From positions 3,360,001 to 3,424,000 of the forward strand of contig CAVRAY010000001.1 in the NCBI GenBank assembly GCA_963719225.1: a DNA stretch of 64,000 nt, in the 5' to 3' direction. The position numbers were made by a program, and so were the translations under genes. This document shows positions 35,882-55,775 of this stretch, piece after piece. Origin of the DNA: Thermoanaerobaculia bacterium (GTDB lineage Bacteria > Acidobacteriota > Thermoanaerobaculia > UBA5066). The notes under the pieces are model-generated. The model was not told where the DNA came from and did not search any database. It saw nothing but the letters and a program-made list of their open reading frames with translations. Positions within the stretch are counted from its first letter, which is position 1, and each line of letters starts with the position of its first letter.

Positions 35882-38631
35882 CAGAAATCGATCCGCGCGG
35901 CGAGCTGCAGCTGCCGGGCCTGGTAGAGGTCGTTCGTCGAGGGACGCGGCGCGCCGAAGTCGGCCGCGCTCACGATGTTGCTGTAGCTGTCGGGATCGTA
36001 GTTCTTCCGGTTCGTCACGTTGAAGCACTCGGCGATCAGCTCGAGGCCGACAGGGCCCAGGACGAAGCGCTTCGCGAGTCGCAGGTCCCATCGGAAATAG
36101 CTCGCCGAGAGCTCGGAGTTGCGGCCGAAGCCCGCCGGGCGGTCCTGGCCGAACGGGGGCGCGTCGTCGAGGTTCGCGTCGAAGCCGAGGAGGCGGTTGT
36201 ACGCCCGGCCGGAGCCCACGGTCACGATCGTGCCGAGCGTGAACGCAAAGGGCGTCTTCGAAAGGAGGTCGTAGGAGCCGTTCGCGACGAGGCGATGGCG
36301 CTGGTCGTTGCGCGCGGGTCCACGGTCCTGCCCGAAGGGATCGGACGAGCGCGCATCGCTGACGTTGACCGCGAAGAACTCGGCTTCGTTCGTCGCGCGC
36401 GACCACGTGTACGACAGCTGAGCCTGCCAGTCGTCCGAATAGGCCTTCCTGACGGTCGCGAGCAGGCCGTAGTACGTCGAGTTTCCGTCCGAGTGGACGC
36501 GGCGCACCGATCCGAGCTGCGGGATGGGCCGCGGCGAATTCGGGTTCGACGGATCCGCACGCAGGTTCTCGCGCACCTCGCCCAGCTCGTGCCGGCCGAG
36601 GATGTAGACGCCGTCGGCGGACACCGCCCAGCCGTGCCCGACCGCCTGCGAGAGACCGAGGCTGTACATGAGCGTATACGGCGTCTGCATGTCGGGGTCG
36701 TTCGCGCGTACTTCCGGCGCGACGCCGATCGCCGGGAGCTTCGTGATGTCGGGCGCCGTCACGCCGTTGCACGCCCCCGCGACGGCGAAGCACGGGTACG
36801 CCTTGATCGTGAAATTCTGCCCGTTGAAGATGTCCTCGTTCAGGCTGAGGTTGTTGAAGATCTCGAAGTAGAACATGCCGGCGCCGCCGCGGACGACCGT
36901 CGTCCCGCGCCCGGTCGGATCCCACGCGAATCCCAGGCGCGGCGCGACGTTGTTCCTGTCCTCCGACGTCGGGGTCCTCAGCACCGGGTTCCCCGCAGCG
37001 TCCTTCAACGGAAAGACGAAGTCCGAGTTCAGAGCGCCGTCCTGGAGGTCGTAGCGCACGCCGAAGTTCAGCGTCAGGCCCTGCGCGATGCGCCACTCGT
37101 CCTGGACGAATCCGCTCCAGAAGTTGATCTGATTCAGGGTGGAGGGGTCTCCTCCACCCTTGATGTAGAGCCGCGCCGTCTTGTCGTCGCCGAGGTATGT
37201 GAACTGGCCCGCGACGAAGAGGTTGAACGTCACGTCTCCCTGCCAGCGCGAGAAGCCGCCGCCGAGCTTCAGGAAATGGTTGCCCGCGGTCAGCGCGAAC
37301 GTGTCGTCGAGCCCGTACCGCTGCTCCTTGCCTCTCTGCGGGAACCGGGGGTTGCCGCCCGCGCTGTACGTCGCGTGCGCCTGGCCGACGTCCGACGAGT
37401 TCGGCGGCGAATCCTGGTCGAAGATGAGCGCGGTCAGCCGTGCGTCGTTGTACGACTTCGCCGAGGGCGACCACTGGTGGGCGAGGATCCAGCCCTGGCT
37501 CTTCGACGCCTGCGCGTAGCCGTACGACGCCGCGAGGCTGCCGCCCACGTTCAGGTTCGTCTGGTCGCGGTCGTCGTAGCGATACGAGAGCGTCAGGTGG
37601 TGCCGGGGAGTCGCGGCGACGTCGACCTTGGCGAAGGCAAGCTTGCGGTCGGTCTCCTGCGGGACGCTGCCGGAGAGGTCGGGGCGGACGGGAATCGAGA
37701 CGACGACCTTGGGATTCGCGTCCAGCTTGTCGAACGAGCCGAAGAAGAACGCCTGGTCCCTGAGGAGCGGACCGCCGAGCGTCGCCCCCCAGTTCTGCCG
37801 CCGGTAGTCGTTGGGCTGATTCGAGAAGAACGGCTCGGCCGTCAGGGAGTCGTTCCGGAGGTAGTAATAGGCCGTCCCGTGAAAGGCGTTCGTGCCCGAC
37901 TTCGTGACGACGTTCACGACGACGGAGTTCGAACGCCCGTACTCGGCGGAGAAATTGTTCGTGACGACCTGGAACTCCTGCACCGTGTCCTGGCTGACAT
38001 TGGCCTGCTGCCCGCCGACGATGAAGTTGTTGTTGTCGGCGCCGTCGAGCGAGACGTACGTCCATCGCGCTTCCTGGGCGCCGCCGGCGACGACGCCGGT
38101 GAACGCCACGTCGCGGCCGGGAGTCGTGCCCGGCGCGAGGAGCGCGAGCTCGAGGTAGTTGCGCGTCGCGAGCGGCAGCGACTTGACCTGCTGGGGCGTG
38201 ACGATCGAGGCGACCTGCGAGGACGTCGGATCGATGAGCTCGACCGTGCTCGAGACCTGGACCTCCGCCGCTGCCGCGGCGCGCATCCGGATCGGGAGCA
38301 CCGCCTCCTGCCCCACGGCGAGGCGCAGCCCCCCCGAGCGAAAGGCGCTGAAGCCCGCGAGCTCCGCGGTGACCGCGTACGTCCCCGGCCTGAGGAGGGC
38401 AATCCGAAAGTCCCCCGCGCTTCCGGTGACGGCGCGGCCCGTGATGCCGCGCTCCTCGTCGCGCGCGGTGACGGCGACACCGGGGAGCGGCGCGCCGTCC
38501 TGGTCCACGACGACCGTTCCCGAGAGAGTGGCCGTGTCGGCGGCAGAGGCGGCCCAGGACCACGCGATGAGCGCGACGAGGGCGAGGACGAGAGCCGGAA
38601 AAGGCTTCGTCGGGTGTCCCGGAATCCTCAT
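35881..38631 (-). CDS. TonB-dependent receptor (Oar-like, carboxypeptidase-regulatory N-domain)
   Basis: Signal peptide; VQEFQVVTNNFSAEYGR, NVVTKSGTN, QDEWR and APRLGFAWD motifs; ends QLAARIDF. AAGGAG RBS before ATG 38631. Confidence 0.92.
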   Translation of the reverse strand: MRIPGHPTKPFPALVLALVALIAWSWAASAADTATLSGTVVVDQDGAPLPGVAVTARDEERGITGRAVTGSAGDFRIALLRPGTYAVTAELAGFSAFRSGGLRLAVGQEAVLPIRMRAAAAAEVQVSSTVELIDPTSSQVASIVTPQQVKSLPLATRNYLELALLAPGTTPGRDVAFTGVVAGGAQEARWTYVSLDGADNNNFIVGGQQANVSQDTVQEFQVVTNNFSAEYGRSNSVVVNVVTKSGTNAFHGTAYYYLRNDSLTAEPFFSNQPNDYRRQNWGATLGGPLLRDQAFFFGSFDKLDANPKVVVSIPVRPDLSGSVPQETDRKLAFAKVDVAATPRHHLTLSYRYDDRDQTNLNVGGSLAASYGYAQASKSQGWILAHQWSPSAKSYNDARLTALIFDQDSPPNSSDVGQAHATYSAGGNPRFPQRGKEQRYGLDDTFALTAGNHFLKLGGGFSRWQGDVTFNLFVAGQFTYLGDDKTARLYIKGGGDPSTLNQINFWSGFVQDEWRIAQGLTLNFGVRYDLQDGALNSDFVFPLKDAAGNPVLRTPTSEDRNNVAPRLGFAWDPTGRGTTVVRGGAGMFYFEIFNNLSLNEDIFNGQNFTIKAYPCFAVAGACNGVTAPDITKLPAIGVAPEVRANDPDMQTPYTLMYSLGLSQAVGHGWAVSADGVYILGRHELGEVRENLRADPSNPNSPRPIPQLGSVRRVHSDGNSTYYGLLATVRKAYSDDWQAQLSYTWSRATNEAEFFAVNVSDARSSDPFGQDRGPARNDQRHRLVANGSYDLLSKTPFAFTLGTIVTVGSGRAYNRLLGFDANLDDAPPFGQDRPAGFGRNSELSASYFRWDLRLAKRFVLGPVGLELIAECFNVTNRKNYDPDSYSNIVSAADFGAPRPSTNDLYQARQLQLAARIDF

Positions 38632-38662
38632 GTCGTCTCCTTCCACCGAACGCGCGGGTTCT

Positions 38663-40654
38663 CTAGCCCGCCGCCGGCTTGCGGCTCCGAATCTCCTCCA
38701 GACGTCGAAGCAGCCGCTCCGCTTCGGTCCTGTTCCCTCTCGCACGCTCGACGCGCGCGAGGTTCTCGATGGTCTGGGCGCGGTCGGGATCGGCGACGAG
38801 GGCCTCGTGCAGGCGAAGGGCCGCCGCTTCGAAGTCGCGCCCCTCGGCCGCGACCGCCGCGAGACCTGAGAGGCCGTCCACGCTGCGTCCGTCGAGGGCC
38901 ACGACGCGTTGGAACGCCTCCCGCGCCCGCTCCAGCCGGCCGAGCGCGAGCGATTCCTGCCCGAGGTTGATCCACGCATCCTGGAAGTCGGGCTTCAACC
39001 GGACGGCCTCCTCGTGAGCGCGGGCCGCATCGGTCTCGCGCCCGAGGAGGTGCCAGGCGATGCCGAGACCGAACCAGTCCTCGGCCAGCGGCGGAAATCG
39101 ACGAAGGATCTCCTGATAGGCGGCCGCGGACTCCCTCGCGCGGCGGCTCCGCCTGAGGACGAGCGCGAGCTCGCGGAAGAGAGCGGGATCCGACCGCACG
39201 ACGGCGGGGTCGAGCGCGGAAAGGAGCGCGGCGGCCTCGGCGCTCTTCCCGAGCTGGCGCGCGATGATCGCGTCCTCGATCGACGGCCATTCCCCGATGC
39301 GGTCCTTCGGATCGACACGCCTGGCGTCGATGCGGTCGAGATCGGAGCCGGCTCCCTGGGGCGTCACGTAGCCGAGCGAAGCGAGCCGACGCACGGTCTC
39401 CTCGTCCGCAGCCGCGGCCGGTCTCAGCCGTGGCGCCGGCTTCCCGACGATTGCGCCGAGGCGGCGCGCGAGATCGCGCGCGTCCTCCCCGTCGGCGTGA
39501 AACACGTTCGCGCGCTCGAGAGGATCGGCCGTGAGGTCGTAGAGCTCCTTGCGCGGCGCGTCGACGAACTTGAACGATGCGCTGCGCACCGCCTTGAGCG
39601 GAGACCAGCCGAGCAGGGCCGCCGGATAAACGCTCTCCGCGTAGACGACGCGGCTTGGAGGCGCGGTCCCGGCGAGGGCGGAAAAGAGCGACACACCGTC
39701 GCCGTCGCGGTCCGCCGGAAGACGCGCCGCTTCGCGCAGGGTGGGAGCGAGGTCGACGAGGGAGACGGGCGTCGCGACGCGGGTACCGGCCACGCCGGAC
39801 GGCGCGACGACGACGAGCGGAACGTGGAGCGTCGCGTCGTAAAGGAAGACGCCGTGCGTCTTCTCGCCGTGCTCGCCCAGAGATTCACCGTGATCGCCGG
39901 CGACCGCGACGAGAGTCTTCGCGAGGAGGCGGCGTGACTCGAGGTGAGCGATCAGCCGCCCGAGCGCCGCATCGGCCGCCGCGACCTCGCCGTCGTAGGG
40001 AGAGGAGAACCGGTCCCGGAACGCGGGCGGCGGTACGTAGGGGGCATGCGGGTCGTAGAGGTGTACCCACAGGAAGAAGCGTCCCTCGCCGTGGGCGTTC
40101 AGCCACGCGATCGCGCGATCAACGACCTCCTCGCCTCCCCTTTCGGCGCGCCACGAAGCGGCCTCGAGCCCGGCATTCGCGGCGAAGCTCTCGTCGTAAG
40201 CCTCGAACCCGCGGGCGAGCCCGACCTCGGACCGGAGCACGAGCGACCCGATCACGGCCGCGGTCTCGAAGCCCGCTTCGCGGAACGCACTCGCGAGGAG
40301 CGGGACGTCGGCGGCGACGCGGTCCGTCCCGTTCACGCGCACGCCATGGCGAAACGGCAGGCGGCCGGAGAAGAGAGACACGTGGGCCGGGAGCGTGAGA
40401 GGCGCCGGCGAGAACGCGCTGGAGAAGACCGCGCCGCGTGAGGCGAGGCGGTCCAGATGAGGCGTCAGGTTGGGCGGTCCGCCGAGCGCGCCCACACGGT
40501 CCGCGCGGAGCGTGTCGATCGTGACGACGAGAAAATTCTGGGCGCGCGGTTGAGCCGGGGCCGTTCGAACGCAGCCCGCGGTGGCCAGCGTGAACAGACC
40601 TCCGGCGGCGTACACCAAAAAGGCGTCGCCGAGACGTCGGCCTTGTTCTCCCAC
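38663..40654 (-). CDS. Sulfatase-like hydrolase/transferase with C-terminal TPRs (probable lipoprotein)
   Basis: TIDTLRAD, TLPAH (Thr at the usual Cys/Ser position), YDPHAPY and GDHGE motifs; TAGC lipobox-like; TPRs. Confidence 0.88.
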   Translation of the reverse strand: MGEQGRRLGDAFLVYAAGGLFTLATAGCVRTAPAQPRAQNFLVVTIDTLRADRVGALGGPPNLTPHLDRLASRGAVFSSAFSPAPLTLPAHVSLFSGRLPFRHGVRVNGTDRVAADVPLLASAFREAGFETAAVIGSLVLRSEVGLARGFEAYDESFAANAGLEAASWRAERGGEEVVDRAIAWLNAHGEGRFFLWVHLYDPHAPYVPPPAFRDRFSSPYDGEVAAADAALGRLIAHLESRRLLAKTLVAVAGDHGESLGEHGEKTHGVFLYDATLHVPLVVVAPSGVAGTRVATPVSLVDLAPTLREAARLPADRDGDGVSLFSALAGTAPPSRVVYAESVYPAALLGWSPLKAVRSASFKFVDAPRKELYDLTADPLERANVFHADGEDARDLARRLGAIVGKPAPRLRPAAAADEETVRRLASLGYVTPQGAGSDLDRIDARRVDPKDRIGEWPSIEDAIIARQLGKSAEAAALLSALDPAVVRSDPALFRELALVLRRSRRARESAAAYQEILRRFPPLAEDWFGLGIAWHLLGRETDAARAHEEAVRLKPDFQDAWINLGQESLALGRLERAREAFQRVVALDGRSVDGLSGLAAVAAEGRDFEAAALRLHEALVADPDRAQTIENLARVERARGNRTEAERLLRRLEEIRSRKPAAG

Positions 40655-40756: not shown

Positions 40757-43700
40757 TTGAAGAGGCATCTCCTCCAGGCGCTGGCGTACCTGCCGCAGCC
40801 GTTGCGCCGCCGTTCGTACGTCGCGAACCTGGGCTTCGATCCGACCGAGGTCTCGCGCCTCAACTTCAAGCTGGCGGAGACGCTCGACGAACGCATCCAG
40901 AGCTTCCGCGTCCTGCACGACATGTACGTGCGGCGCGGGCTCATCGATCCGACGCCTACGGGCCTCAGGTTCACCGTCTTCTCCGTGCTGCCGACGACCG
41001 CGATCTTCGTGGGAATCCGCGATGGCCTGGTCGTGAGCACGATGTCGCTGATCGAGGACTCTCCGCTCGGCGTCCCCATGGAAAAGCTCTACCGCCAGGA
41101 GATCGGGCGGCTGCGCCTCGAGCGCCGCCGCTTCGCCGAGGTGAGCGCCCTCGCCGTCCAGACGGAGGCACGCGGCAAGGGCCTCGCGCTCATGATGTAC
41201 AACCTGATGTTCCGGTGGGCATTCTTCTACCGGGGCGTCGACGACCTCGTCATCGCCGTGCATCCGAAGGCGGAAGGTTTCTACCGGGACGTTCTTCTCT
41301 TCGACCGGTTCGGAGACGTCCGTGCCTACGAATCCCTCAAGGACGCGCCGGCCGTCGCGCTGAAGCTGGAGCTGCAGACGATCGTGCGGCGCTATCGCGC
41401 GCTGTACGACCGTCGGAGGCGATCCGGCGAGAACGAGCCGGTTCAGAACCTCTACCACTTCTTCTGCGAGGAACAGTTCGCGAACTTCTCGATGCCCACG
41501 CTCCGCGCGGACACGTCGCGCCGCGTGCCGCCGCCCGCCTGGAGCCACGAGGATGTCAGCAGCCTCTTCGAGGAGCACGGGTTCGACATCTCGTCTCTGA
41601 CGTCCGAGGAGCGGCGTTTCTTCATTCTCGAGTACCCGAACCTGGACTGGTCGATTCCGCGCGGAAGAGGCTTCCGGCGGAGCGCGACGGGCCTGAGGGA
41701 AGGCGGGCGCACCGGCAGCCCCGTCGCGGACGCTCTCCTCACGGCCGCGGCGCGCGCTCCCTCCCACGACAACACGCAGCCCTGGCGCTTCACGGCGGAC
41801 ACGAAAACCGGCCGCATCGCCTTCCACGTGGACGAGGGCCGCGATCCTTCGCCGCTCAACGCGGGGCAGCGGCTGTCGCGACTGGCCGTCGGCTGCGCGA
41901 TCGAGAACTTCCGCCGCACGGCCCTGGCGAACGGCTGGAGCCTCGAGGTGGAAGACCCTCCCCCCAACGCGCTCGCGATGTTCCGCGTGACGGACGAGGG
42001 CCACGCTCCGCCGCGCGCCGACGGTCCGATCTTCGCTCGGGTCACGAACCGGATGGTCTACGGCTCTCGCCCCGTTCCCGCGGCGGCGCTGGAGCGTCTC
42101 GCGTCGAAGACTCCCGATCTGGACGGCGTCAAGACACACTGGATCCTCGCGCCTCATCGCGTCGAGGCGCTCGCCGACCTCGTCGGCCGGGCCGAGCGGA
42201 TCGTGTTCGCCCACGGCGCTCTTCGGCGGGCGCAGCACGCCCGCGTGCGTTTCGACCGCAAGCGCGGGGACGCGGTTTCCGAAGGTCTCTCGGTCGCCGC
42301 GCTCGAGCTCTCCCCGACGCGCGAACAGATCCTCCGGCGCGCGGCGTGGCTGCCGGACTGGGCCGTGAAGGCGCTCGGCATTCCCCTCCTGGCCGCCTCG
42401 GCCGCCGCGGATCTCGTGCGGAGCTCTTCGGGTCTCTGTCTGGTCGTGGCGCCCGACGCGAGCCCGGCGTCGGACCTCGCGGCCGGGCGCGCGGCGCAAC
42501 GCGCGTGGCTGTCGATGACCGAGGAGGGACTCGCGGTGCATCCCATGCACGCGCTCGTCGGGCTCGACACGATCCTCGAGAACGGCGCCCCGAAGCTCGT
42601 GGCGTCGCTCTCGAGCAGGAAAGTGAACGCGCTGAAACGCGAGCTGCGCTCGCGCGCGCCGGAGCTCGGATCGGGGAGCCCGGCGTTTCTCATGCGGTTC
42701 GGCAATGCGCCCCCGCCGGCGGGCCGGAGCGGACGGCAGCCGCTCGAGGCCGTGACGCGGCAGGCGCCTCTGGCCCCCGGGGCCAAGCCGACGTCGTCGC
42801 CCGCGGCGCCGGCGCGGAAATCCCGCAGGCCCCGCGTCCTGTTCGTGGGCGAGGCGATCAGCCTCACGCACGCCCGGCGTCCCTTCGCGCTCGCGCGCGG
42901 CATCAACCCGGCCCTGTTCGAGGTCGTGTTCGCGTGCGACCTTCGCTTCCGGCACCTGTTCCCGCAGGTGGATTTCGAGATGGTGCCGCTCCGTTCGATT
43001 CCGTCGGAGCAGTTCCTCGACGCCCTCGCGGCGGGCTCGCCGATCTACGACGTCGGGACGCTCCAGGAATACGTGGAGGAGGACGAGCGTCTCCTGCGCG
43101 AGGTCGCTCCGGACATCGTCGTCGGAGACTTCCGGCTTTCCCTCGGCGTCAGCACGCGCGTCGCCGGAATTCCCTACGTCTGCCTCGCGGAGTCGTGCTG
43201 GAGCCCCTATGCGAAGCTGAAGATTCCCCTCGCGGAGCACCCCGCCGTCAAGCTCGTCGGGCCGCGGGTGGCACAGGCGGTCTTCAAGCCGATCCGGGCG
43301 ATCGCGTTCGCATATCACGCGCTGCCGATGAACGCCGTGCGCCGCGGGCACGGACTCCGGGGGCTCCGCCTCGACCTGCGCCGCGTGTTCACGGACGGGG
43401 ACTACGCGCTCTACGTCGACGTCCCCGAGCTGACGCCCATGTTCGACCTGCCCGCGAATCACCAGTACCTCGGCCCGGTGCTCTGGTCGCCCGAGGTGCC
43501 GCTCCCGCCCTGGTGGTCCGAGCTGCCGCGCCACCTCCCGATCGTCTTCGTCGCGCTCGGGAGCGTCACGAACCCGGCGATCCTGCCGGTCGTCCTCGAG
43601 GCGCTCGAGCCCCTGCCCGTCACGATCGTCGCCGAGACGCGGGGCGCGCGCCTTCCGCACGTGCCGAAGAACGCGTTCGTCGCCGATTTCCTCCCGAGGG

Positions 43701-44041
43701 AACGCATGATCAAGGAGGCCCGCCTCGTCATCTGCAGCGGTTCGACCTCCAGCTCTCATCAGGCGCTCGCCCAGGGCCGCCCGGTGCTCGGGATCGTCAG
43801 CAACATGAACCAGCACCTGAACATGCAGGCCGTCGAGCAGGCGCGGGCGGGCCGCTTCGTCAGGGCCGGAGGGATCGAAAGCCGCGCTCTCGGCGATCTC
43901 GCCCTGTCGTTCCTCGCGCGCCCGGCTTACACGGAAGCGGCCCAGGCTCTCGCGCACACGCTCGCGCGTTACGACGCCGCGACGCGCCTTCAGGACCTCC
44001 TCGCCCGCATTCCCGTCCACACCTCCTCCTCCGTCCTGTGA
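40757..44041 (+). CDS. Tri-domain fusion: FeeM-like N-acyl amino acid synthase (GNAT) + nitroreductase-like oxidase + GT1 glycosyltransferase
   Basis: About 40757-41630: YVRRG, TMSLIEDSPLGVP, AEVSALA, IAVHPK..FY. About 41720-42760: RAPSHDNTQPW, RVTNR, GRAAQRAWL. About 42830-44041: EAISLTH, PDIVVGDFR, YLGPVLWSP, NQHLN. Confidence 0.82.
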   Translation: MKRHLLQALAYLPQPLRRRSYVANLGFDPTEVSRLNFKLAETLDERIQSFRVLHDMYVRRGLIDPTPTGLRFTVFSVLPTTAIFVGIRDGLVVSTMSLIEDSPLGVPMEKLYRQEIGRLRLERRRFAEVSALAVQTEARGKGLALMMYNLMFRWAFFYRGVDDLVIAVHPKAEGFYRDVLLFDRFGDVRAYESLKDAPAVALKLELQTIVRRYRALYDRRRRSGENEPVQNLYHFFCEEQFANFSMPTLRADTSRRVPPPAWSHEDVSSLFEEHGFDISSLTSEERRFFILEYPNLDWSIPRGRGFRRSATGLREGGRTGSPVADALLTAAARAPSHDNTQPWRFTADTKTGRIAFHVDEGRDPSPLNAGQRLSRLAVGCAIENFRRTALANGWSLEVEDPPPNALAMFRVTDEGHAPPRADGPIFARVTNRMVYGSRPVPAAALERLASKTPDLDGVKTHWILAPHRVEALADLVGRAERIVFAHGALRRAQHARVRFDRKRGDAVSEGLSVAALELSPTREQILRRAAWLPDWAVKALGIPLLAASAAADLVRSSSGLCLVVAPDASPASDLAAGRAAQRAWLSMTEEGLAVHPMHALVGLDTILENGAPKLVASLSSRKVNALKRELRSRAPELGSGSPAFLMRFGNAPPPAGRSGRQPLEAVTRQAPLAPGAKPTSSPAAPARKSRRPRVLFVGEAISLTHARRPFALARGINPALFEVVFACDLRFRHLFPQVDFEMVPLRSIPSEQFLDALAAGSPIYDVGTLQEYVEEDERLLREVAPDIVVGDFRLSLGVSTRVAGIPYVCLAESCWSPYAKLKIPLAEHPAVKLVGPRVAQAVFKPIRAIAFAYHALPMNAVRRGHGLRGLRLDLRRVFTDGDYALYVDVPELTPMFDLPANHQYLGPVLWSPEVPLPPWWSELPRHLPIVFVALGSVTNPAILPVVLEALEPLPVTIVAETRGARLPHVPKNAFVADFLPRERMIKEARLVICSGSTSSSHQALAQGRPVLGIVSNMNQHLNMQAVEQARAGRFVRAGGIESRALGDLALSFLARPAYTEAAQALAHTLARYDAATRLQDLLARIPVHTSSSVL

Positions 44042-44066
44042 GAAGGACGGATACGATGGAGGAGCC

Positions 44067-44981
44067 GTGACGTCCTCGTTCTCGCCCCGGGAGGCCTTCG
44101 AGCGAAACTTCGGCCTCGTGACGCGCGCCGAGCAGGAGCGCCTCTTCGTTTCGCGCGTCGCGATCGCGGGCTGCGGCGGCGTGGGGGGCCTGCACGCGCA
44201 CGTCCTCGCGCGCCTGGGCGTCGGACGGTTTCGCCTCGCGGACTTCGACACGTTCTCGGTCGTGAACTTCAACCGGCAGATCGGCGCGACGATGGAGACC
44301 GTCGGGAAGAGCAAGGCGGAGGTGACGGCCGCGATGATCCGTTCGATCGATCCCGACGCCACGGTCGAGATCCTCGAGGAGGGCGTCGACGCGGCGAACG
44401 CGGACGCCTTCGTGGCCGGTGCCGATCTCGTCGTCGACGGCGTGGACTTCTTCGCGCTCTCCGGGCGCCGCGCGCTTTTCGCCGCGGCGCGGCGCGCGGG
44501 AGTGCCCGCTCTCACCGCGGGTCCGCTGGGCTTCGGCGCGTCGCTCCACGTCTTCTCTTCCAACGGCATGAGCTTCGACGAGTACTTCGGTCTCGCGGAC
44601 GGACAGGATCCGTTCGAGCAGCTCCTGAACTTCGTCGTCGGGCTCGCGCCGGGGGGACTCCACGTTCCCTACCTGGACTTCTCCACCGTGGATCCCGCGA
44701 CCGGCCGCGGGCCTTCCTCCATCGTGGGGACCCAGCTCGCGTCCTGCCTCGTCGGCGCCGAAGCCGTGCGGGTCCTGCTGGGCCGGGGGCCGTCGCCCGA
44801 CGCCCCGCGGTATTTCCAGTTCGACGCCTACCGCCGCAAGCTCAAGAGCGGGTCCTTGCGCCATGGGAACAAGGGTGTCGTGCAGCGGCTCAAGCGCGCC
44901 GTGCTGAGAAAGCGGGCGCGCGCGCTGGGCTGGGATCGCGCTCTTTTGGAACGGGCGAAGCGGGAGGCGGGGGCTCCATGA
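44067..44981 (+). CDS. ThiF-family adenylyltransferase, MoeW/TyzB-like cyclodehydratase
   Basis: EAFERNFGL, IAGCGGVGG, ADFDTF..NFNRQ, TAGPLGFG, GMSFDEYF, RGPS and FQFDAY motifs. No Zn CxxC motifs of the MoeB type. Confidence 0.88.
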   Translation: MTSSFSPREAFERNFGLVTRAEQERLFVSRVAIAGCGGVGGLHAHVLARLGVGRFRLADFDTFSVVNFNRQIGATMETVGKSKAEVTAAMIRSIDPDATVEILEEGVDAANADAFVAGADLVVDGVDFFALSGRRALFAAARRAGVPALTAGPLGFGASLHVFSSNGMSFDEYFGLADGQDPFEQLLNFVVGLAPGGLHVPYLDFSTVDPATGRGPSSIVGTQLASCLVGAEAVRVLLGRGPSPDAPRYFQFDAYRRKLKSGSLRHGNKGVVQRLKRAVLRKRARALGWDRALLERAKREAGAP

Positions 44982-46999
44982 GCGCGGCCGTGCCGCGAAA
45001 GACGCGGGTCCTCTTCTTCGGCGAGGCCGTGACGCTCTCGCACGTCGTGAGGCCCCACGTCCTGGCGGCCTCGCTGGATCCGGCACGCTACGACGTGACG
45101 GTCGCCTGCGATCCGCGGTTCTCGAGCCTCTTCGAGAAGTCGACGTTCGCGCGCCGCGACCTGGAGAGCATCACCTGCGACGAGTTCCTGCACAAGCTCG
45201 AGGTCGGCTCCCCCGTCTACGACGCCCGCACTCTGAGGCGCTATGTGGACGAGGACCTCGCTCTTCTGCGCTCCGTGGAGCCCGACGTCGTCGTCGGCGA
45301 TTTCAGGCTCTCGCTCTCGGCGAGCGCACGGCTCGCCGGCGTCCCGTATCTCGCCGTGACCGACGCGTGCTGGAGCCCGTTCTCCGCCGCCTCCTTCCCG
45401 CTCGCCGAGCACCCGATGACGAAGGTGCTCGGCGTGCGCGCGTCCCAGGCCGTCTTCGCCGCGATCCGGCCGGCCGCGTTCGCGTACCACTGCCTGCCGA
45501 TCAATCGCGTGAGGCGGGACCTGGGTCTGCCGTCCCTCGGGTACGACCTCCGGCGCGTGTACACGAGCGCGGACTGGGTCCTCTACGCCGACATTCCGGA
45601 GCTCGCGCCGCTCCTGAATCTGCCCGCGACGCACCGGTATCTCGGCCCGATCCGGTGGTCGCCCGCCGTTCCGAAGCCGGCGTGGTGGGACGAGGTGCCG
45701 AAGGACAAGCCGGTGGTCTACGTCACGTTCGGGAGCTCCGGCAAGATGAATCTCCTGCCGCGCCTCGTGAAAGCTCTTTCGGAGCTGCCGGTGTCGATCC
45801 TCGTGGCGACGGCGGGCCGGGCGGCGCTCGACCTTCCGCCGCGCGATACGTTCGTCGCCGATTACCTTCCGGGCGACGCGGCCGCCGCGCGCTCGAGCCT
45901 CATGATCTGCAACGGCGGAACGCTCACGGTCCAGCAGGCCCTCTGCGCGAGCGTCCCCGTCCTCGGGATCGCGAACAACATGAATCAGCACATGAACATG
46001 CAGACGATCAGCCGCGCCGGTGCGGGCGAGCTGATGCGCGCCGGAACGTTCGATCCGTTCGAGCTGCGCGCCATGGTGCTCAAGATCCTCTCGTCTCCCG
46101 CCTACGTGCAGGCCGCCTCCGTTCTCGGGCAGACGTATCTCAGGTACGACGCGCCCTCTCGCTTCGGAGAGATCCTGGAGGTCGCCGCGCGCACCGCGGT
46201 GCTCCGGGAGGCCGCGCCCGCGAGGAGGCGCACCTCCTCGGTGCGCATGCTCGAGCCGAAGGTCAAGACGCAGGCCGAGGCGCTCGCGTACGACGAGATG
46301 GAGCACCACTTCGGCGACATCATCTTCCAGGGCCTCGCCGAGTCCGCTCTCAACATGGGGGTCGCCAAAGGGCGCATGCTCGAGGTGGGCACGGGCACCG
46401 GCCGCGTCAGCATCCGCCTCGCGAAGCTGAACCCCGCCCTGTCCATCGACGCCGTCGACCACACGGAAGCGAATTTCCACGTCGCGCGCGGGAACGCACG
46501 GCGGCACGGCCTCGGCGAGCGGCTGCGCTTCTCCCTCGCCCGCCCGAACGCGCTGCCTTTTCCCCCGAACGCCTTCGACCTCGTCATCGCGAGCAACGTC
46601 CTCCTGAACGCGGCCGACCCTCTCGCGTGCCTGAGGGAGATCCGGCGCGTCGCGCGGCCCGAAGGCGCGATCCTCGTGCGCGACGTGAGACGCCTTCCCG
46701 CGGCGATCCTGCCTTTCGTCGTCGCGCTCTACACGCGGGGCTACAGCCCGACGCTCAAGCGCCTCGCCTCGAACTCGTTCCACGCGGCGCTCTCCTACGC
46801 GGAGCTGGAGTCGCTCGTGAAGCAGCTCGAAATGCCGCGCGCGAAGGTCCGGAAGTACTTCGTGTCGCACATCGGGATCGAGGTGCCGGCCGCGAGGTTC
46901 GCGGCGGCGCCCATGAGGCCGCCCGCGGCGGCTTCGCTCTTCAAGCGTCTCGCCAAGTCGCTCTTCGTCTCGCGCGCCTCGGACGCAGGGCTGACGTGA
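44978..46999 (+). CDS. Fusion: GT1 glycosyltransferase (Rv2962c-like) + class I SAM-dependent methyltransferase
   Basis: GT motifs EAVTLSHVVRP..SLDPARYDV..ACDPR and CNGG..QQAL; MT motifs LEVGTGTG, LPFPPNAFDLV and EIRRVARPEG. ATGA overlap with the upstream gene. Confidence 0.85.
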   Translation: MSAAVPRKTRVLFFGEAVTLSHVVRPHVLAASLDPARYDVTVACDPRFSSLFEKSTFARRDLESITCDEFLHKLEVGSPVYDARTLRRYVDEDLALLRSVEPDVVVGDFRLSLSASARLAGVPYLAVTDACWSPFSAASFPLAEHPMTKVLGVRASQAVFAAIRPAAFAYHCLPINRVRRDLGLPSLGYDLRRVYTSADWVLYADIPELAPLLNLPATHRYLGPIRWSPAVPKPAWWDEVPKDKPVVYVTFGSSGKMNLLPRLVKALSELPVSILVATAGRAALDLPPRDTFVADYLPGDAAAARSSLMICNGGTLTVQQALCASVPVLGIANNMNQHMNMQTISRAGAGELMRAGTFDPFELRAMVLKILSSPAYVQAASVLGQTYLRYDAPSRFGEILEVAARTAVLREAAPARRRTSSVRMLEPKVKTQAEALAYDEMEHHFGDIIFQGLAESALNMGVAKGRMLEVGTGTGRVSIRLAKLNPALSIDAVDHTEANFHVARGNARRHGLGERLRFSLARPNALPFPPNAFDLVIASNVLLNAADPLACLREIRRVARPEGAILVRDVRRLPAAILPFVVALYTRGYSPTLKRLASNSFHAALSYAELESLVKQLEMPRAKVRKYFVSHIGIEVPAARFAAAPMRPPAAASLFKRLAKSLFVSRASDAGLT

Positions 47000-48036
47000 C
47001 GTCTCTCGAGAAGCTCGTCTTCGCCGCCGTCCGGGCGCCCTCCGGCGACAACACGCAGCCCTGGCGCTTCGCGCTCGACGAGAAGACGTCGCGCATCGAG
47101 ATCCATCTCGATGCCGCGCGGGATCCCTCGCCCATGAACGCGGGGCAGCGCATGGCGCGCATCGCGCTCGGCGCCGCGCTCGAGAACCTCCTCTCCGAGG
47201 CCGGGCGGCTCGGCTTCGCGCCCGTCCTCGAGGAAGCGCCGCCGGCGCTCGCGGCCGTTCGCCTGACGGCCGCGGGCCGGGATCCGGACCTCGATGCCGT
47301 CGTCGCGGCGCGGGTCACGAACCGCCGCCCGTTCGACGGCCGCGCCCTGGATCCCCAGGTGAAGGCCGCCCTCGAGCGTGAGTCGTCGCCGCCCCTGGGA
47401 GGCGTGACGACGCACTGGATCGCCGCGAAGGAAAGGCTCCGCTTCCTCGCCTCTCTCGTCGGGCGCGCGGACGCGACGATGTTCTCCGTTCGCGAGATGC
47501 TCATGGCCTTCCTGGGAAAGGTGCGCTTCGACGCGCGGAGAGACGAAGCCGTCGAGGACGGGCTCTCTCCAGCCTCGCTCGAGCTTTCCCCCGCCGACCG
47601 GATCCTGCTCCGGCTGCTTCCCCGCCTTCCGCACGGTCTCCTTCGGGCGCTCGGGATGTTTCACGTCATGGGGGCGCGCTCGAGGGCGCTCGTCGCCGGC
47701 TCCTCGGCTCTCTGCCTCGTCGTCGCGCCCGACGCGGAGCCCCGCACGGACCTCGACGTAGGACGCGCGGCCGAGCGCGCGTGGCTCGCGCTGACGGCGC
47801 ACGGCCTCTCGGCGCAGCCGATGATGTCGCTTCTCGTCCTCGAGAACGCTCTGGATCACGGCGTCCTCGCGCCGGGTCGGACCCGCGACGCGGCCCTGGA
47901 GATACGCGCCGGCCTGCGGAAGCTCGCGCCCGAGGTCGGCGGGGGCCGGCCCGCTTTCCTGATGCGCGTGGGGTACGCGCCGCCGCCGAGGGGCCGCGTC
48001 GGCCGCCTTCCCGTCGGGGACGCTACGCGGCTCTGA
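46996..48036 (+). CDS. Nitroreductase-like (TyzC/Acg-type) flavoprotein, paralog of the middle domain of 40757-44041
   Basis: RAPSGDNTQPW, RVTNRRPF, GRAAERAWL and LSAQPM motifs. The GTG start at 46996 overlaps the upstream TGA. Confidence 0.82.
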   Translation: MTSLEKLVFAAVRAPSGDNTQPWRFALDEKTSRIEIHLDAARDPSPMNAGQRMARIALGAALENLLSEAGRLGFAPVLEEAPPALAAVRLTAAGRDPDLDAVVAARVTNRRPFDGRALDPQVKAALERESSPPLGGVTTHWIAAKERLRFLASLVGRADATMFSVREMLMAFLGKVRFDARRDEAVEDGLSPASLELSPADRILLRLLPRLPHGLLRALGMFHVMGARSRALVAGSSALCLVVAPDAEPRTDLDVGRAAERAWLALTAHGLSAQPMMSLLVLENALDHGVLAPGRTRDAALEIRAGLRKLAPEVGGGRPAFLMRVGYAPPPRGRVGRLPVGDATRL

Positions 48037-49207
48037 GAGCCGTCGTGATCTTCAGGCGGGCGGCCCGCAGCGCCGGGAGAAGGCCGCCCGCGACGCCCAT
48101 GACGAGCGAGAAAGCGACTCCGCGCGCGACCAGGGACGGCGTGATCCGGAAGTTGAACAGCACCTCGGCGAACGTGGCGAAGTTCTGCGTCCCCGTCGGC
48201 TCGACGAGGAGGAGCTTGACGAGGAGGGTCGCGGCGAGAGCGCCCAATGCTCCGCCGATCAGCGCGAGGAGCATCGACTCGATCACGAAGGAGAGGACGA
48301 CGGCCGGCCTCGAGTAGCCGAGCGCCCGCAGAGTGGCGATGTCGGTCGTGCGGGCGGCGACCTGCGCGTACATCGTGTTCATCGCGCCGAACGTCGCCCC
48401 GATCGCCATGAGGACGCCGACGAGCCAGGCCAGGAACTCGATGGGCTTCGCGGTCGACTGCTGCTCGGAGAAGTACTGTTCTTCGGTCTTCGCCGCGAGC
48501 TTGATGCGCTGGTCGTCGCGGATCGCCCCCAGCAGGCGGACGCGCTGCCCCGCGTCGCGCGCGCGCAGCCGCACGACGGACAGGATCCCCTCGCGCTGGG
48601 ACTGCTCCTGGAGGTTGTGGAGGTCGGCCCAGACCTCGGAGTCGTACGGCGAGTTCGCGGCCTCGAAGTGCCCGACGATCGTCCAACGCTCGATCCCCGA
48701 GCGGATCTCGCTCCCGACGCCGAGAGAGGCGAAGCGCCGCGCGGTCCTCCGCGAGACGACCACCTCGTTCGTGCCGGGTCGGAACGCACGGCCCTCGACG
48801 ATCTTGAGAGCCGGCCGCAGGAGAAAGGCCTCGGGCTCCACCCCGCGCAGGATGACGTTCGTCTTCCGACCGTCCTTCCGGGCCAGGCTCACGAGCACCA
48901 CGATCTCCGGAGAGACGAGAGGTCCGCCCGACGGCGCACGGTCGATCCCGGGAAGCGTTCGGACCGCCTCGTATTCCTCGCGCGTGATCACGCTCATGAC
49001 GTCCGACTGCGCGCCCACGCGGAGCGCCACGATCGAGCGCGTCGAGACCGGCGCCTCGAAGGTCTTTCTCACGCCCTCGGCGAGCGACATGACGAGGAGG
49101 AAGACCGCGACGACGAGGGAGATGCCGAGGATCGTCATCGAGGTCGAGACACGCCGCACGAAGAGGTTCCGGAAGTTGTACTTGAGCGGGATCGCCGCCT
49201 TCGACAT
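48023..49207 (-). CDS. ABC exporter permease (MacB/FtsX-like), copy A2
   Basis: [15 protein letters not shown] start and [20 protein letters not shown]; TGATG coupling with the upstream gene. Confidence 0.9.
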
Positions 49208-50364
49208 CAGGCCACCCGGCGGAGCGCGCCGACGACCGAGATGCGCGAAGAGCGCACCGCGGGCACGAAGCCCGAGAGCGTCCCGATCGCGACGGCGGCG
49301 GCGAACGCCATCCCGACCGTGGACCACGAGACCCGGAAGTTGTACGCGAACGTCGCGGCGGGCGATTGCTTCATTCCCTCCACGAGGGCGTGCGTCAGCG
49401 GAAGGGACAGGAGGACGCCCGCGATTCCCCCCGTCAGGGCGAGGACGAGCGCCTCGGCGAGGATGAGCGCGAGGATGTGGTGCCGCTTGAAGCCGAGGGC
49501 CTTGAGGACGGCGATTTCCGTGACCCTCTCGCGGGCGCTCATCGCCATCGTGTTCGCGACGATGAGGATGATCGTGAAGAGGACCGTCAGCGAGATCGAA
49601 CGCACGAGGAGCTTCACGTTCCCGAGCATCTCGACGAACTGGAGCCGGAACTGCTTCTCGGGCATCGCCTTCACGGGGGCGGAGCTGTTCTCGAAGAGGG
49701 TGTTGATCGCGTCGACGACGACCGGCACGTCGGCGGGCCTCTTGACCCGAAGGACGAAGTTGCCGGTCTGGCCCGCCCGCCCCAGCCACGTGTTCTCGAG
49801 GTACTTGTAGTGATAGAAGATCACGGACTCGTCCGAGCCCTCGTAGACGCCCGCCATCACGAGGTCGAGCGTGATCGGGATGTACGAGCCCTGGATCTGG
49901 ATTCGGTCCCCGAGCTTCCAGTGGAACCGGTCGACGAGCTGCTTGCCCGCGATGAAGGAGTCGCGCCTCGCCTGCCACGTCCGGAGCTGGTCCTTGGGGA
50001 TCCGGTAGTCCTCGTGGATCGTGGCCCACGTGACCGGATCCGCGCCGAGCTGGCCGAAGAAATTCTGCGGTCTTTCGTCGATGTACGTGCCGTTGAACCA
50101 CATCTCCTCGGTCACGGCGACGACGTTCGGGATGCCCTCGATCTTGTGGCGGTAGGCGAGGGGCAGGAATTGCGCGAGGCCGGCCGTGTGCTGGACGAAG
50201 ATCCGCGTCGCGCCCAGCCCCGCGCTGTCCTCCCCCTCGAGCGACGCGAGGAGCGACGAGAGGACGACGATGAGAACCAGGACGAGGACGATCGAGCCGA
50301 TCGTGAGCGCCGCGCGCGTCTTCTTGCGGAAGACGTTGCGCAGGACCAGCGTCAGGAACTTCAT
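49207..50364 (-). CDS. ABC exporter permease (MacB/FtsX-like), copy A1
   Basis: RNVFRKKTR and [22 protein letters not shown]. Confidence 0.9.
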
Positions 50365-51356
50365 CGCTCGCGCCGGATGTTCGTGACGGCGCCGGTCTTC
50401 GGTCCCGCCGGACGCACCTCGGGGCCCGTCGGCTCGCGGAACGGTCCGCTCGCCGGGAGCATCTCGAGCCGTTTCATGAGCTCGACCACGTCGCGCGCAG
50501 AAAGGCCTTCGAACTCCATCGCGACCTCGCGTGCCCAGGCCCGGCGTCGGGAGCGGATCTCTTCCTCTTCGGCCGCGCCCTCGCGTACCACGAAACCCTC
50601 GTTCCAGGGCATCGCCCCCGCCGCTTCGGCCGGTTCGAGCTCGGCCGCTCTCGCCGCCGACGGCACGGGCCTCTCGCGCAGGACTCCCTTGTCGAGGTGG
50701 ACCTGTACGTGGGCGCGCGCGGCGGCCTTCGGGTCGTGCGTCACCATCACGATCGTCTTGCCGAACTCCGTGTTCAACCGGTCCAGGAGCCTGAGGATCT
50801 CGTCGGCGTTCTTCGCGTCGAGGTCTCCCGTGGGCTCGTCGGCCACGAGGATGACGGGGTCGGTCACGATCGCGCGCGCGATCGCGACGCGCTGCTCCTG
50901 CCCGCCGGAAAGCTGTCGCGGATAGTGCGTCATCCGGTCGCCGAGCCCCACGATGGCGAGCGCCGCGCGCGCGTGCTCGCGCCGTTCCTTCTTCGGGAGG
51001 TCCGTCAGGAAGAGCGGAAGCTCGACGTTCTCGAACGCCGTGAGAACCGGGATCAGGTTGTAGAGCTGGAAGATCAGCCCGACGTTCTGCGAGCGCCAGT
51101 CGGCGAGAGCCCCCTCCGAGAGGGACGAGATCTCGTGGCCCGAGATCACGATGCGTCCCGCGGTCGGCCGATCGAGCCCGGCGAGGAGGTTCAACAGAGT
51201 CGTCTTGCCGGAGCCTGACGGGCCCATGAGCGAGATGAACGTTCCGGCCGGGAGCGCGAGGTCGATGCCCGTGAGCACGGGGATCTCGATCGCGTCGCGC
51301 TTGTAGACCTTGGAAACCCCCTCGACCGAGATCAGCGGGGGCGCCGCGGCAGTCAC
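50361..51356 (-). CDS. ABC ATP-binding protein (LolD/MacB-like) with a C-terminal extension of about 100 aa
   Basis: [22 protein letters not shown] and VTHD motifs. Confidence 0.9.
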
Positions 51357-51360
51357 GCCG

Positions 51361-52551
51361 TCACTCCCGCACCTTCACCCGCGCGCTCTCGGAAAGCGCC
51401 GGGGTCGACGCCGCCGCGACGAGCTCCTCTCCGCCGCTCAGCCCTTCGAGGATCTCGAGAGCGCCGTCCGACTCGCGGCCGACCTTGACCTGACGGAACG
51501 AGACACGGTCGTCGGCGATGAGCCAGACGCCGGAAATGCCGTCGCGGGTCACGACCGCGCCCTTCGGCACCTCGACGTGCTTCTTCACCTCCCGTCCTTC
51601 CGTCGATTCCGAGGTGAAGCTGACCTTCGCGGAGAGATCCGGCAGGATTCGCGCGTCGGGATCAACGATCGCGACCTTGACCTTCACGGTGCCCTTCTGG
51701 CGGTCGGCCGACGGGACGATCTGCTTGAGGACCCCGTGGTAGATGCGGTCGGGATACGCGTCGAGGACGATCTCGGCGGGCTGCTTTCCGGACAGCCGCG
51801 CGAGATTCGCCTCGTTGACGTCGGTGCCGACGTAGAAACTCGCGAAATCCACGAGGGTGACGATCGCTCCGCCCGCCTGAGAGCCCTGCCCGGGCTGGCC
51901 GTAGGGTGAGACGGCTTCGCCGACGTGCGCGCGCTTGGCGACGACCACTCCGTCGAAAGGCGCCCGGAGCACCGTGTAATCCATCAGCGCCCGGACGTAG
52001 CGTACACGCGCGCGGCGGGAAGCTTCGAGGTTGACGGCGGCGTCGTAGGCCGACTTCGACGCGACGCCATGGCCCCAGAGCGTCTTCTGACGCTCGAGGT
52101 CGGCACGCGCGTTTTCCCATTCCGCCGAAGCGTCGGCGAGCTGCGCGTCGAGGTCGGTGTGGTCGAGACGCGCGAGAACGTCGCCCTTCTTCACGCGGGA
52201 CCCCTCAGTGACCGTCATTTCCGTGATTCGGGAAGTGATCTTCGGCGAGACGTCCGCCCGCGTCTCCGCCTCGACGTAGCCTGTAGCCGACAGTAGCGTC
52301 AGGCGCTGTCCTTCGGTCAGGAGGATCGCCGTCACTTTCTCGACGGGAACCGCGCTGAAGGCCGGTGCGGCGGCACGCGCGGCGGCGGAACGGGACGCGG
52401 GGTTGAGCCACAGGACGGCCGCGCCTGCGAGCACCGCCAGCGCCAGGGCCAGGCCGACCCAGAGCCGGACGCGACTCCGCGACGAGTCCGCCTGCCGGTT
52501 GATCCGCAGGACCGAAAGCTCGGGCGGCTCGGGGGACGGAACCGGACCCAT
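51361..52551 (-). CDS. Periplasmic adaptor (MacA-like membrane fusion protein), copy A
   Basis: TM anchor; [21 protein letters not shown] and [13 protein letters not shown] motifs. Confidence 0.9.
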
Positions 52552-52613
52552 AGGACCAGAACAGGATACAGCCGAAACAGACGGCCTTCGGATATCGTAC
52601 CTCGCCGGGCGAA

Positions 52614-53816
52614 ATGGAACCTCTCAACAAATCCGCGGATCTCTCCGCCTTGCGCATCGAACGGGACGACGCGTCCCGCGGCCGTCGGTTCCTGTGGGCC
52701 GGGATCGCGACGCTCTGGGTGGCCGCGCTGGCCGCCCTCTTCTTCCTCGGCCGCGTGCGGGGGATCGCACTTCGATCGCCCGAGGTCGCGACGACCCGGG
52801 CGGTACTCGTGACCCCGACGCAGGCGTCGACGATCCTCACGGCCTCGGGCTACATCGTGGCCCGGTCGAAAGCCGAGATCTCGCCGAAGACCGTCGGACG
52901 CATCGCATGGATCAACCTCGAAGAGGGCCAGCGCGTGAAGAAGGGCGAGCTCGTCGCGCGTCTCGAGGCGCAGGAGCTGGACGCGCAGAAAAAGTCCTCG
53001 CTGGCCCAGCGCGACCAGGCCCTCGCCCAGCTCGCGAACGCGCGCCGCGACCGCGTACGCGCCCAGCAGCTCCTCGACGAGAAGATCGGGACGCAGCAGG
53101 CTTACGACACGGCGGATTCCCAGGTCAAGGCGCTCGAGGCCCAGGTCGCGACGTACGAGGCCCAGGCCCGTTACTACGACGAGCAGATCCGGAACGCCGA
53201 GATCTACGCCCCGATCGACGGCGTCGTGACCGTGAAGAAGGCGTTCCTCGGCGAAACCGTGGCGCCGCAGGGTTTCGGGGCCGGCTCGGCGGGCGCGACC
53301 TTCGCGATCATCGTGGACCTGTCCTCTCTCGAGATGGAAGCCGACATCAACGAGCAGAACGTCGGGAAGCTCGTTCTCTCCCAGCCGGCCGAGGTCACGC
53401 TCGACGCGTATCCGGACAAGCCCTACAAAGCGCGCCTGAGGCAGATCGTTCCGACGGCCGATCGCCAGAAGGGCTCGGTCAAGGTGAAGATCGAGCTCCT
53501 CGACAAGGACGCGAAGGTCCTCCCCGAGATGTCCTGCCGCGTCGTCTTCCTGAACCCCCAGACGAAAGTCGACGAGAAGGCGAAACCGAAGGTGATGGTC
53601 CCGTCAGCGTCCGTCGTGGACGTCGGCGGCGAGAAGGGCGTTCTCCTCGTCGCGAACGGCAAGGCCACGTTCAAGCCGGTCGCGTTCGGAGCCGCGGCCG
53701 GCGCCCAGGTGGAGGCGACGTCGGGCCTTTCGGGCGGCGAAGAGATCGTCGCCGACGCGGCGAAGGCGTCGCACACCTGGCGTGGGGAGCAGAAAGTCCG
53801 CATCAAGAAGGACTGA
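52614..53816 (+). CDS. Periplasmic adaptor (MacA-like membrane fusion protein), copy B
   Basis: TM anchor; EGQRVKKGELVARL, APIDGVV and PTADRQKGSVKVK motifs. Confidence 0.9.
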   Translation: MEPLNKSADLSALRIERDDASRGRRFLWAGIATLWVAALAALFFLGRVRGIALRSPEVATTRAVLVTPTQASTILTASGYIVARSKAEISPKTVGRIAWINLEEGQRVKKGELVARLEAQELDAQKKSSLAQRDQALAQLANARRDRVRAQQLLDEKIGTQQAYDTADSQVKALEAQVATYEAQARYYDEQIRNAEIYAPIDGVVTVKKAFLGETVAPQGFGAGSAGATFAIIVDLSSLEMEADINEQNVGKLVLSQPAEVTLDAYPDKPYKARLRQIVPTADRQKGSVKVKIELLDKDAKVLPEMSCRVVFLNPQTKVDEKAKPKVMVPSASVVDVGGEKGVLLVANGKATFKPVAFGAAAGAQVEATSGLSGGEEIVADAAKASHTWRGEQKVRIKKD

Positions 53817-53842
53817 CGAAAGAACGAGACAAGGAGACCCGA

Positions 53843-54589: not shown

Positions 54590-54604
54590 GGGATCGGAAG
54601 GCCG

Positions 54605-55765: not shown

Positions 55766-55775
55766 AAGGACTCTG

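Follow-up and report, generated by a model that had tools for sequence, protein, structure and literature searches.

A fused acidobacterial gene cluster predicted to couple acyl-oxazolone formation with glycosylation

What does a bacterium make when domains of an oxazolone-forming pathway are fused to relatives of a mycobacterial glycolipid glycosyltransferase? The question is raised by a four-gene cluster in a 64,000-nucleotide stretch of a Thermoanaerobaculia genome (GenBank assembly GCA_963719225.1, contig CAVRAY010000001.1, positions 3,360,001 to 3,424,000), hereafter the window. The cluster encodes, in order, a triple fusion of a synthase of N-acyl amino acids (NAS), a nitroreductase of the flavin-dependent oxidase (FDO) type (NTR1) and a glycosyltransferase (GT) domain (GT1); a ThiF-family enzyme; a second GT domain (GT2) fused to a methyltransferase (MT); and a stand-alone second FDO (NTR2). 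Judging from domain families, active-site residues and gene neighbourhoods, we propose, with modest confidence, that the operon makes a singly glycosylated N-acyl-dehydrotyrosine oxazolone (tyrazolone), or the ring-opened acid, through NAS, ThiF, NTR2 and GT2. A predicted glycosylation step, added to a known pathway, appears well supported, and the fused, partly degenerate architecture appears to be undescribed.

Domains of the fused cluster

The preliminary description of the cluster as four co-oriented, tightly spaced genes carrying seven domains was borne out by the open reading frames, their spacing and the domain matches. A gap of 25 bp separates genes 1 and 2, gene 3 shares 4 bp with each of its two neighbours, and the GC content at third codon positions (GC3) is 0.89–0.92 in each of the four frames. 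The TTG start of gene 1 is supported because its homologs begin at the same residue; the single site found in a promoter scan lies on the opposite strand. The gene 1 product comprises a FeeM domain (PF21926, residues 49–204, E 1e-42), an FDO-type nitroreductase domain (residues 321–668) and a GT1-family domain (residues ~690–1085). The two GT domains are 49% identical to each other and the two FDO domains 48%.

N-acyl oxazolones are reported to arise from Tyr, Phe or Trp through an acyltransferase acting with a ThiF cyclase and an FDO, three enzymes here termed the triad (PMC10404671, PMC12856293, PMC12479983 and the 2020 preprint of de Rond et al.; these and the other published systems below are described from the accessible parts of their sources). 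With a FeeM-fold acyltransferase, a ThiF protein and an FDO in one locus, the cluster is like TyzA/TyzB/TyzC (Rv2336, Rv2338c, Rv2337c), OxzAB and TrzAS, a likeness drawn from published descriptions and not from sequence, and, as with TyzB and TyzC, its ThiF and FDO are on separate proteins. Unlike in those systems, the NAS shares its protein with an FDO and a GT, the two FDOs belong to a separate clade, and a GT2-MT gene is added. The NAS-ThiF-nitroreductase order also recalls candidate clusters for the N-acyl dehydrotyrosines kyonggic acid, thalassotalic acid and stieleriacine, and in the Stieleria clusters a methyltransferase gene lies next to ThiF. In contrast to the window, no GT is mentioned for those clusters in the accessible descriptions, where the isolated compounds are not glycosylated. 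For Massilia kyonggiensis, the ThiF and nitroreductase locus tags are given as RS15590/15595 in the main text of PMC12479983 and as RS15990/15995 in its supplement.

The N-terminal domain of gene 1 is FeeM-like, as had been claimed: Glu128 aligns with the active-site Glu of FeeM (AEV motif, structure 2G0B) and is the same residue in all 12 aligned rows. The active-site role of the FeeM residue is described in PMC4897644. The gene 2 product (PF00899) scored 347 bits with NF006077 (cut-off 266), versus at most 93 bits with MoeB, ThiF and TcdA models. It is 41–67% identical to 27 NAS/FDO-linked ThiF proteins, among which it groups in a tree, and 36% identical over 107 residues to the MoeB-like protein of its own genome; Massilia-group ThiF proteins with the NAS-ThiF-nitroreductase gene order are 48–50% identical to it. 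The ThiF protein is thus not of the MoeB/TcdA type.

Both FDO domains are matched over their whole length by NF047509 (142 bits) and NF005901 (130–134 bits), scores that lie below cut-offs set for whole proteins. The family-conserved columns are kept at 29 of 31 positions in NTR1, which has His for a conserved Gln, and at 30 of 31 in NTR2. In a quick tree, both fall into a long, separate clade. Two planctomycete ThiF-FDO-GT operons have a member of this clade as their sole FDO, in the usual position and with all 31 conserved columns, which argues that the clade is active. NTR2 is the likely desaturase of the cluster.

GT2 is 50% identical over 383 residues, and GT1 47%, to a 449-residue Mycobacterium tuberculosis rhamnosyltransferase of phenolic glycolipid (PGL) and p-hydroxybenzoic acid derivative (p-HBAD) synthesis, whose Leu46 and Gln294 fit the Rv2962c numbering of PMC8957993 (our sequence P0171). 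Loss of Rv2962c leaves a lipid with a free phenol, and Rv2958c acts next (PMC8957993). The claimed kinship of both GTs to Rv2962c therefore stands. The motif strings quoted for it all occur but are a composite, as not all are in both domains: EAVTLxHVVRP..SLDPxRY..ACDPR occurs only in GT2 and YLGPVLWSP only in GT1, and PDxVVGDxRxSL is shared by both. The top solved GT structure for each domain is CalG1, which we take to be a phenol rhamnosyltransferase, and the His of GT2 aligns with the N-terminal His of CalG1. Unlike the loci of Rv2962c and Rv2958c, the window contains no phenolphthiocerol or p-hydroxybenzoate genes.

The two GT domains differ in how well they keep the 81 columns in which conservation among 259 standalone GTs reaches 95% or more. 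Of these columns, the standalone enzymes keep 72–81 and full-length GT-MT proteins 72–75 (window GT2, 73), and NAS-NTR-GT proteins keep 60–67 (window GT1, 65), so that the GT1 group retains 74–83% compared with at least 89% in the standalone set. Because the GT groups differ little in identity at variable columns (0.40–0.48), the loss in GT1 is specific to conserved sites. Only 38 of the 81 columns are invariant across 11 GT1 rows, versus 71 across 11 GT2 rows, and the catalytic His is lost in the GT1 orthologs P0006, P0007 and L052. GT1 is thus likely a pseudo-enzyme or weakly active. GT2 shares its His, Asp and phosphate loops with Rv2962c and is likely the active glycosyltransferase of the cluster. 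The idea that the product may carry two sugars is weakened by this degeneracy, as GT1 falls below the standalone minimum of 72. An AlphaFold model of the gene 1 product was poor (pLDDT 63, pTM 0.42) and confirmed the GT-B fold only. In the GT tree, the window GTs form a separate clade (support 100/99).

The MT domain has the glycine motif for S-adenosylmethionine (SAM) and the acidic residue, and Leu-Asn replaces the His pair that follows strand 4. The SAM motifs are degenerate in 12 of 14 other fused MT rows. Glycine motif, acidic residue and first His are found together in 34 of 35 complete standalone rows and in none of 15 fused rows, the latter including two duplicates of L016 proteins. 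The first His is present in 35 of 37 standalone rows, and the motif aligns with RebM and AtmM (3BUS, 6UV6); we presume the pair to be catalytic, a role that we did not find in the literature searched. The best PDB match of the window MT, 4PNE, also has no His pair, and is presumably the non-methylating SpnF. The activity of the domain is therefore doubtful, although it might use a His-free mechanism, and the methyl group proposed for the product loses support. A likeness of the window MT to P0212, a methyltransferase of the M. tuberculosis complex returned with the Rv2962c cluster, was considered and dropped, as the two showed no similarity. In Thermodesulfatator atlanticus, an MT-FDO fusion (P0280) is a relative of the window MT and of NTR2 alike; the MT family is therefore linked no less to the aglycone pathway than to the sugar.

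Association of the GT family with the oxazolone triad

A scan of GTDB with an alignment query, of which the best 80 of 578 matches were taken, gave 79 GT-anchored loci; a query with GT2 alone confirmed no locus. ThiF is encoded in 56 of the 79 loci, and all 56 also have an FDO. Among the 58 loci of at least 20 kb, 48 have ThiF and FDO, 44 have the whole triad within 10 kb, and 49 contain XrtA/PEP-CTERM genes. The loci that combine GT and triad span two named phyla and eight named families, and the simple four-gene form (NAS-ThiF-FDO-GT) occurs in cultured, non-pathogenic strains of Massilia, Telluria, Duganella, Halioglobus and Marinobacterium. In 81 genomes from a single Massilia-group genus, a sample chosen independently of the GT, ThiF was found in 60 and the GT in 10, each of which also has ThiF; in nine of these the two genes lie ~1.15 kb apart on the same strand, and in the tenth they are split across contigs. 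The link between GT and triad is not chance. The ThiF grouping, the domain fold at the N terminus and the recurrence of the GT with the triad had been set out beforehand as places where the preliminary description could fail, and none of the three went against it.

Among the 50 ThiF loci without GT in this genus, 18 on long contigs were compared. All of them share PrsT-NAS-ThiF, but eight have no FDO, which fits a GT that acts on the desaturated product. From the locus counts, the cassette is modular, with a core of NAS and ThiF and an optional FDO and GT, the GT lying by ThiF only when an FDO is present. In these Massilia-group loci (L141–L158) the PrsT-NAS-ThiF block lies inside an XrtA locus, and those without FDO often have a second NAS nearby.

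Most stand-alone relatives of the window GTs sit, with the triad, in XrtA/PEP-CTERM loci that encode ExoAT (TIGR03694). The window differs from these loci: its NAS does not match TIGR03694, none of its scanned genes belongs to the XrtA system, and the single exosortase-family match in the genome is XrtH. A search of the genome for the PEP-CTERM motif gave no match, but gave none in any control either. As the XrtA context was not found, a PEP-CTERM anchor role for the window locus was rejected.

Other genes near the GT vary. An LbH acyltransferase gene is present in 39 of the 79 GT-anchored loci; proteobacterial loci have it where planctomycete and acidobacterial loci have a 2-oxoacid-dehydrogenase-type acyltransferase domain, adjacent to the GT or joined to it in one protein in L017, L020, L024, L016 and L162. 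The sugar may thus be acylated. GMC oxidoreductase (26 loci) and SDR (21 loci) family genes also recur near the GT, for example at L082:12319-14734. In a Phycisphaeraceae metagenome-assembled genome (MAG), rmlB, an rmlA-like gene and an O-methyltransferase gene lie between NAS and ThiF-FDO-GT (L018:4111-7847); this set points more clearly than any other to a variant with a methylated 6-deoxyhexose.

The fused architecture itself recurs. Among 17 matches to gene 1, the NAS-NTR-GT fusion was found in eight other full-length protein clusters, at 46–80% identity, and the search also returned NAS-GT, NTR-NTR and acyl-AMP-ligase-GT-MT fusions; a GT2 search gave nine further GT-MT proteins among its best matches. 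Atlas searches returned only generic nitroreductase and methyltransferase clusters. In the longer relatives L096 and L159, the set is extended by FabH, a further acyltransferase, additional FDOs and a fatty acyl-AMP ligase, and longer relatives also carry an FAD oxidase; the form in the window is therefore a streamlined one. Among named relatives of the cluster, that of an Acidobacteriota MAG is the closest (ThiF, 67% identity).

Proposed product and alternatives

In the pathway that we propose, the FeeM domain would acylate the amino acid, as its family and catalytic Glu suggest, and the ThiF enzyme, with its intact motifs, would adenylate the carboxylate and close the oxazolone. An FDO, most likely NTR2 from its position in the operon, would then desaturate the alpha-beta bond, with an active site unlike those of tested FDOs, and GT2 would glycosylate the phenol, in line with its 50% identity to Rv2962c and the co-occurrence described above. 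Tyrosine as the amino acid, the identity of the sugar and the oxidation step are assigned by analogy with related systems. GT1 and the MT domain are probably non-catalytic remnants, possibly kept for binding substrate or partner proteins. Because both have lost conserved active-site residues, a product with one sugar and no methyl group is probable, the sugar probably being a 6-deoxyhexose on the phenol.

Several observations weigh against this proposal. The amino acid used by FeeM-like synthases cannot be assigned from sequence, and related systems use Phe or Trp. A helix Arg that is present in 57 of 58 proteobacterial FDOs is absent from both window FDOs and from 19 of the 20 rows of their score class. 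It may correspond to Arg540 of TrzS, the loss of which reduces FMN binding and desaturation, by an offset mapping through a proxy (P0017) that is ambiguous by two residues. The GT family includes Rv2958c, which acts on the sugar after Rv2962c, so membership is no proof of a phenol acceptor; because both mycobacterial enzymes belong to it, the acceptor could be a phenol or a sugar. All fused GTs, unlike Rv2962c and Rv2958c, have Asn in the DQ sugar-binding motif, where 257 of 259 standalone GTs have Asp, and the donor may therefore not be rhamnose. The RmlC match in the genome is weak (51 bits, cut-off 156); in favour of a rhamnose-type sugar, its RmlB and RmlD score above cut-off, and the related L018 cluster encloses rmlB and an rmlA-like gene. 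Window GT1 itself still has its His and Asp, and residual activity is therefore possible. Finally, the locus counts are not independent: Oxalobacteraceae contribute 23 of the 56 loci with ThiF, all drawn from the best 80 of 578 matches.

Part of this evidence could instead indicate a different product, either because something other than a tyrosine phenol accepts the sugar (another aromatic amino acid, say, or a 3-hydroxy acyl chain) or because the FDO performs another oxidation and the oxazolone serves as an activated acyl donor. The long, separate FDO clade without the conserved Arg, the three correlated active-site changes common to the fused GTs, the additional biosynthetic genes of the longer relatives and the ready opening of oxazolones by acid or alcohols, as reported in the accessible literature, are all consistent with this. 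This is a genuine rival, if a less likely one; against it, the same FDO clade provides the only, fully conserved FDO of the planctomycete ThiF-FDO-GT operons and that the sole tested phenol-type relative is 50% identical to GT2. If both GTs and the MT were active, the phenol of the tyrazolone would carry a methylated mono- or disaccharide, in the manner of phenolic glycolipids. Two GTs and an MT mirror the PGL locus, window GT1 keeps His, Asp and the GT-B fold, in window MT the glycine-rich motif and acidic residue are intact, and the closest solved relatives of the MT family are sugar O-methyltransferases. This outcome is distinctly improbable, as the losses in the GT1 clade are lineage-specific and reach the His and the phosphate loops, none of the fused MTs has the three tested features together, and the window MT is unlike P0212.

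Degenerate motifs in several domains might also mark a decaying cluster whose output, if any, would be just a plain N-acyl amino acid or oxazolone. Relatives rarely have the cluster: a close GT match was absent from 60 related genomes (best 22–31% identity), and 400 genomes of the phylum, with four candidates scored per genome, contained nothing near the window GT clade and two distant matches. Against decay stand four intact frames with high GC3, an architecture that persists down to 46% identity, and a GT2 clade in which 71 of 81 family columns are invariant, and we consider it very unlikely. The single-sugar tyrazolone, or its acid, remains our preferred product.

The preliminary description held that no glycosylated member of this compound class was known. 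We likewise found no glycosylated acyl-oxazolone or acyl-dehydrotyrosine in the literature searched, which covered few subscription journals. Glycosyl terms are absent from the main texts of PMC10404671, PMC12856293 and PMC12596934, 'glycosyltransferase' is absent from PMC12479983, and 'glycosyl' from its readable supplements. The novelty of the gene combination is smaller, since the GT with the triad is widespread and the clustering of some oxzB genes with predicted glycosyltransferases is mentioned, in one sentence, in the preprint of de Rond et al. (2020).

What acyl-oxazolones do physiologically is named in PMC12856293 as a major unresolved question. A sugar-adding step recurs with the pathway, and an acyltransferase gene often comes after it; in strains with this step, the tyrazolones and N-acyl-dehydrotyrosines that were isolated may be intermediates of a glycolipid. 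If so, Rv2962c-type glycosyltransferases would gain a function outside mycobacteria. The fused form is an example of duplicated domains that apparently lose catalysis yet are retained. More speculatively, and with considerable doubt, the cluster could represent, in one of its fused forms, an undescribed but widespread class of bacterial aryl-glycoside aminolipids, the glycosylated N-acyl-dehydrotyrosine oxazolones, made in many cultured Proteobacteria with an Rv2962c-like GT encoded inside exosortase biofilm loci. The mycobacterial PGL glycosyltransferases would then have been recruited from this family, and the pseudo-GT and pseudo-MT would organise a channelling complex for the labile oxazolone. 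In two trees, mycobacterial GTs fall among triad-linked GTs (joining branch 84/91; outgroup rows are long branches). Nesting is only a suggestion, as a sister position was not excluded by an AU test (p 0.206).

Coordinates and genomic surroundings

Table 1. Features of the cluster and the adjoining exporter operon (window coordinates).
Feature	Position	Strand	Remarks
Gene 1, NAS-NTR1-GT1 triple fusion	40757..44041	+	1094 aa; TTG start
FeeM-like N-acyl amino acid synthase domain (gene 1)	40901..41368	+	PF21926; Glu128 kept
NTR1, FDO-type nitroreductase domain (gene 1)	41717..42760	+	29/31 family-conserved columns
GT1, Rv2962c-family GT-B domain (gene 1)	42827..44005	+	47% identity; 65/81 conserved columns
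Gene 2, predicted ThiF-family adenylating cyclodehydratase	44067..44981	+	304 aa; NF006077/PRK08223 above cut-off; ATP-binding motifs intact
Gene 3, GT2-MT fusion	44978..46999	+	673 aa
GT2, Rv2962c-family GT-B domain (gene 3)	44996..46177	+	50% identity; His, Asp kept
Class I SAM methyltransferase fold (gene 3)	46250..46981	+	SAM motifs intact; RebM/AtmM-type His pair replaced
Gene 4, NTR2, stand-alone FDO	46996..48036	+	346 aa; GTG start within a longer open frame
MacB/FtsX-type ABC exporter (two permeases, ATPase, MFP)	48023..52551	-	Convergent; cluster membership uncertain

The genome has a single FeeM match and no further copy of the GT or FDO domains. The convergent ABC exporter downstream of gene 4 is a possible exporter of the cluster product: its permeases are 62–70% identical to permeases beside related clusters, and exporter and cluster are co-located in L096, L097, L100, L101 and L102, four of which are near-identical. 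Whether it is a dedicated part of the cluster was left uncertain, because the exporter also occurs without the cluster in G018, G044 and G041; in G018, of the same genus, it is joined to other window genes. Positions 48023–56954 hold two divergent, paralogous operons for MacB/FtsX-type exporters, each with a membrane fusion protein (MFP), an ATPase and two permeases. The pair is syntenic in these three genomes, whose fetched stretches contain no cluster domain.

On the other side, a sulfatase-TPR gene and a gene for a TonB-dependent-type outer membrane protein (35881–40654, minus strand) diverge from the cluster, and the junction between sulfatase and NAS is kept in L095 at 87% DNA identity. 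A GAF-PAS-GGDEF-EAL protein is encoded 7 kb upstream of the cluster (30035–34039, minus strand), which may be chance; the trzAS locus likewise adjoins c-di-GMP turnover genes, according to the accessible text of PMC12856293. Elsewhere in the genome, at ~1,443,900 of contig C1, the exosortase H gene (L134:1471-1977) adjoins a gene for a protein with repeated surface-type domains.

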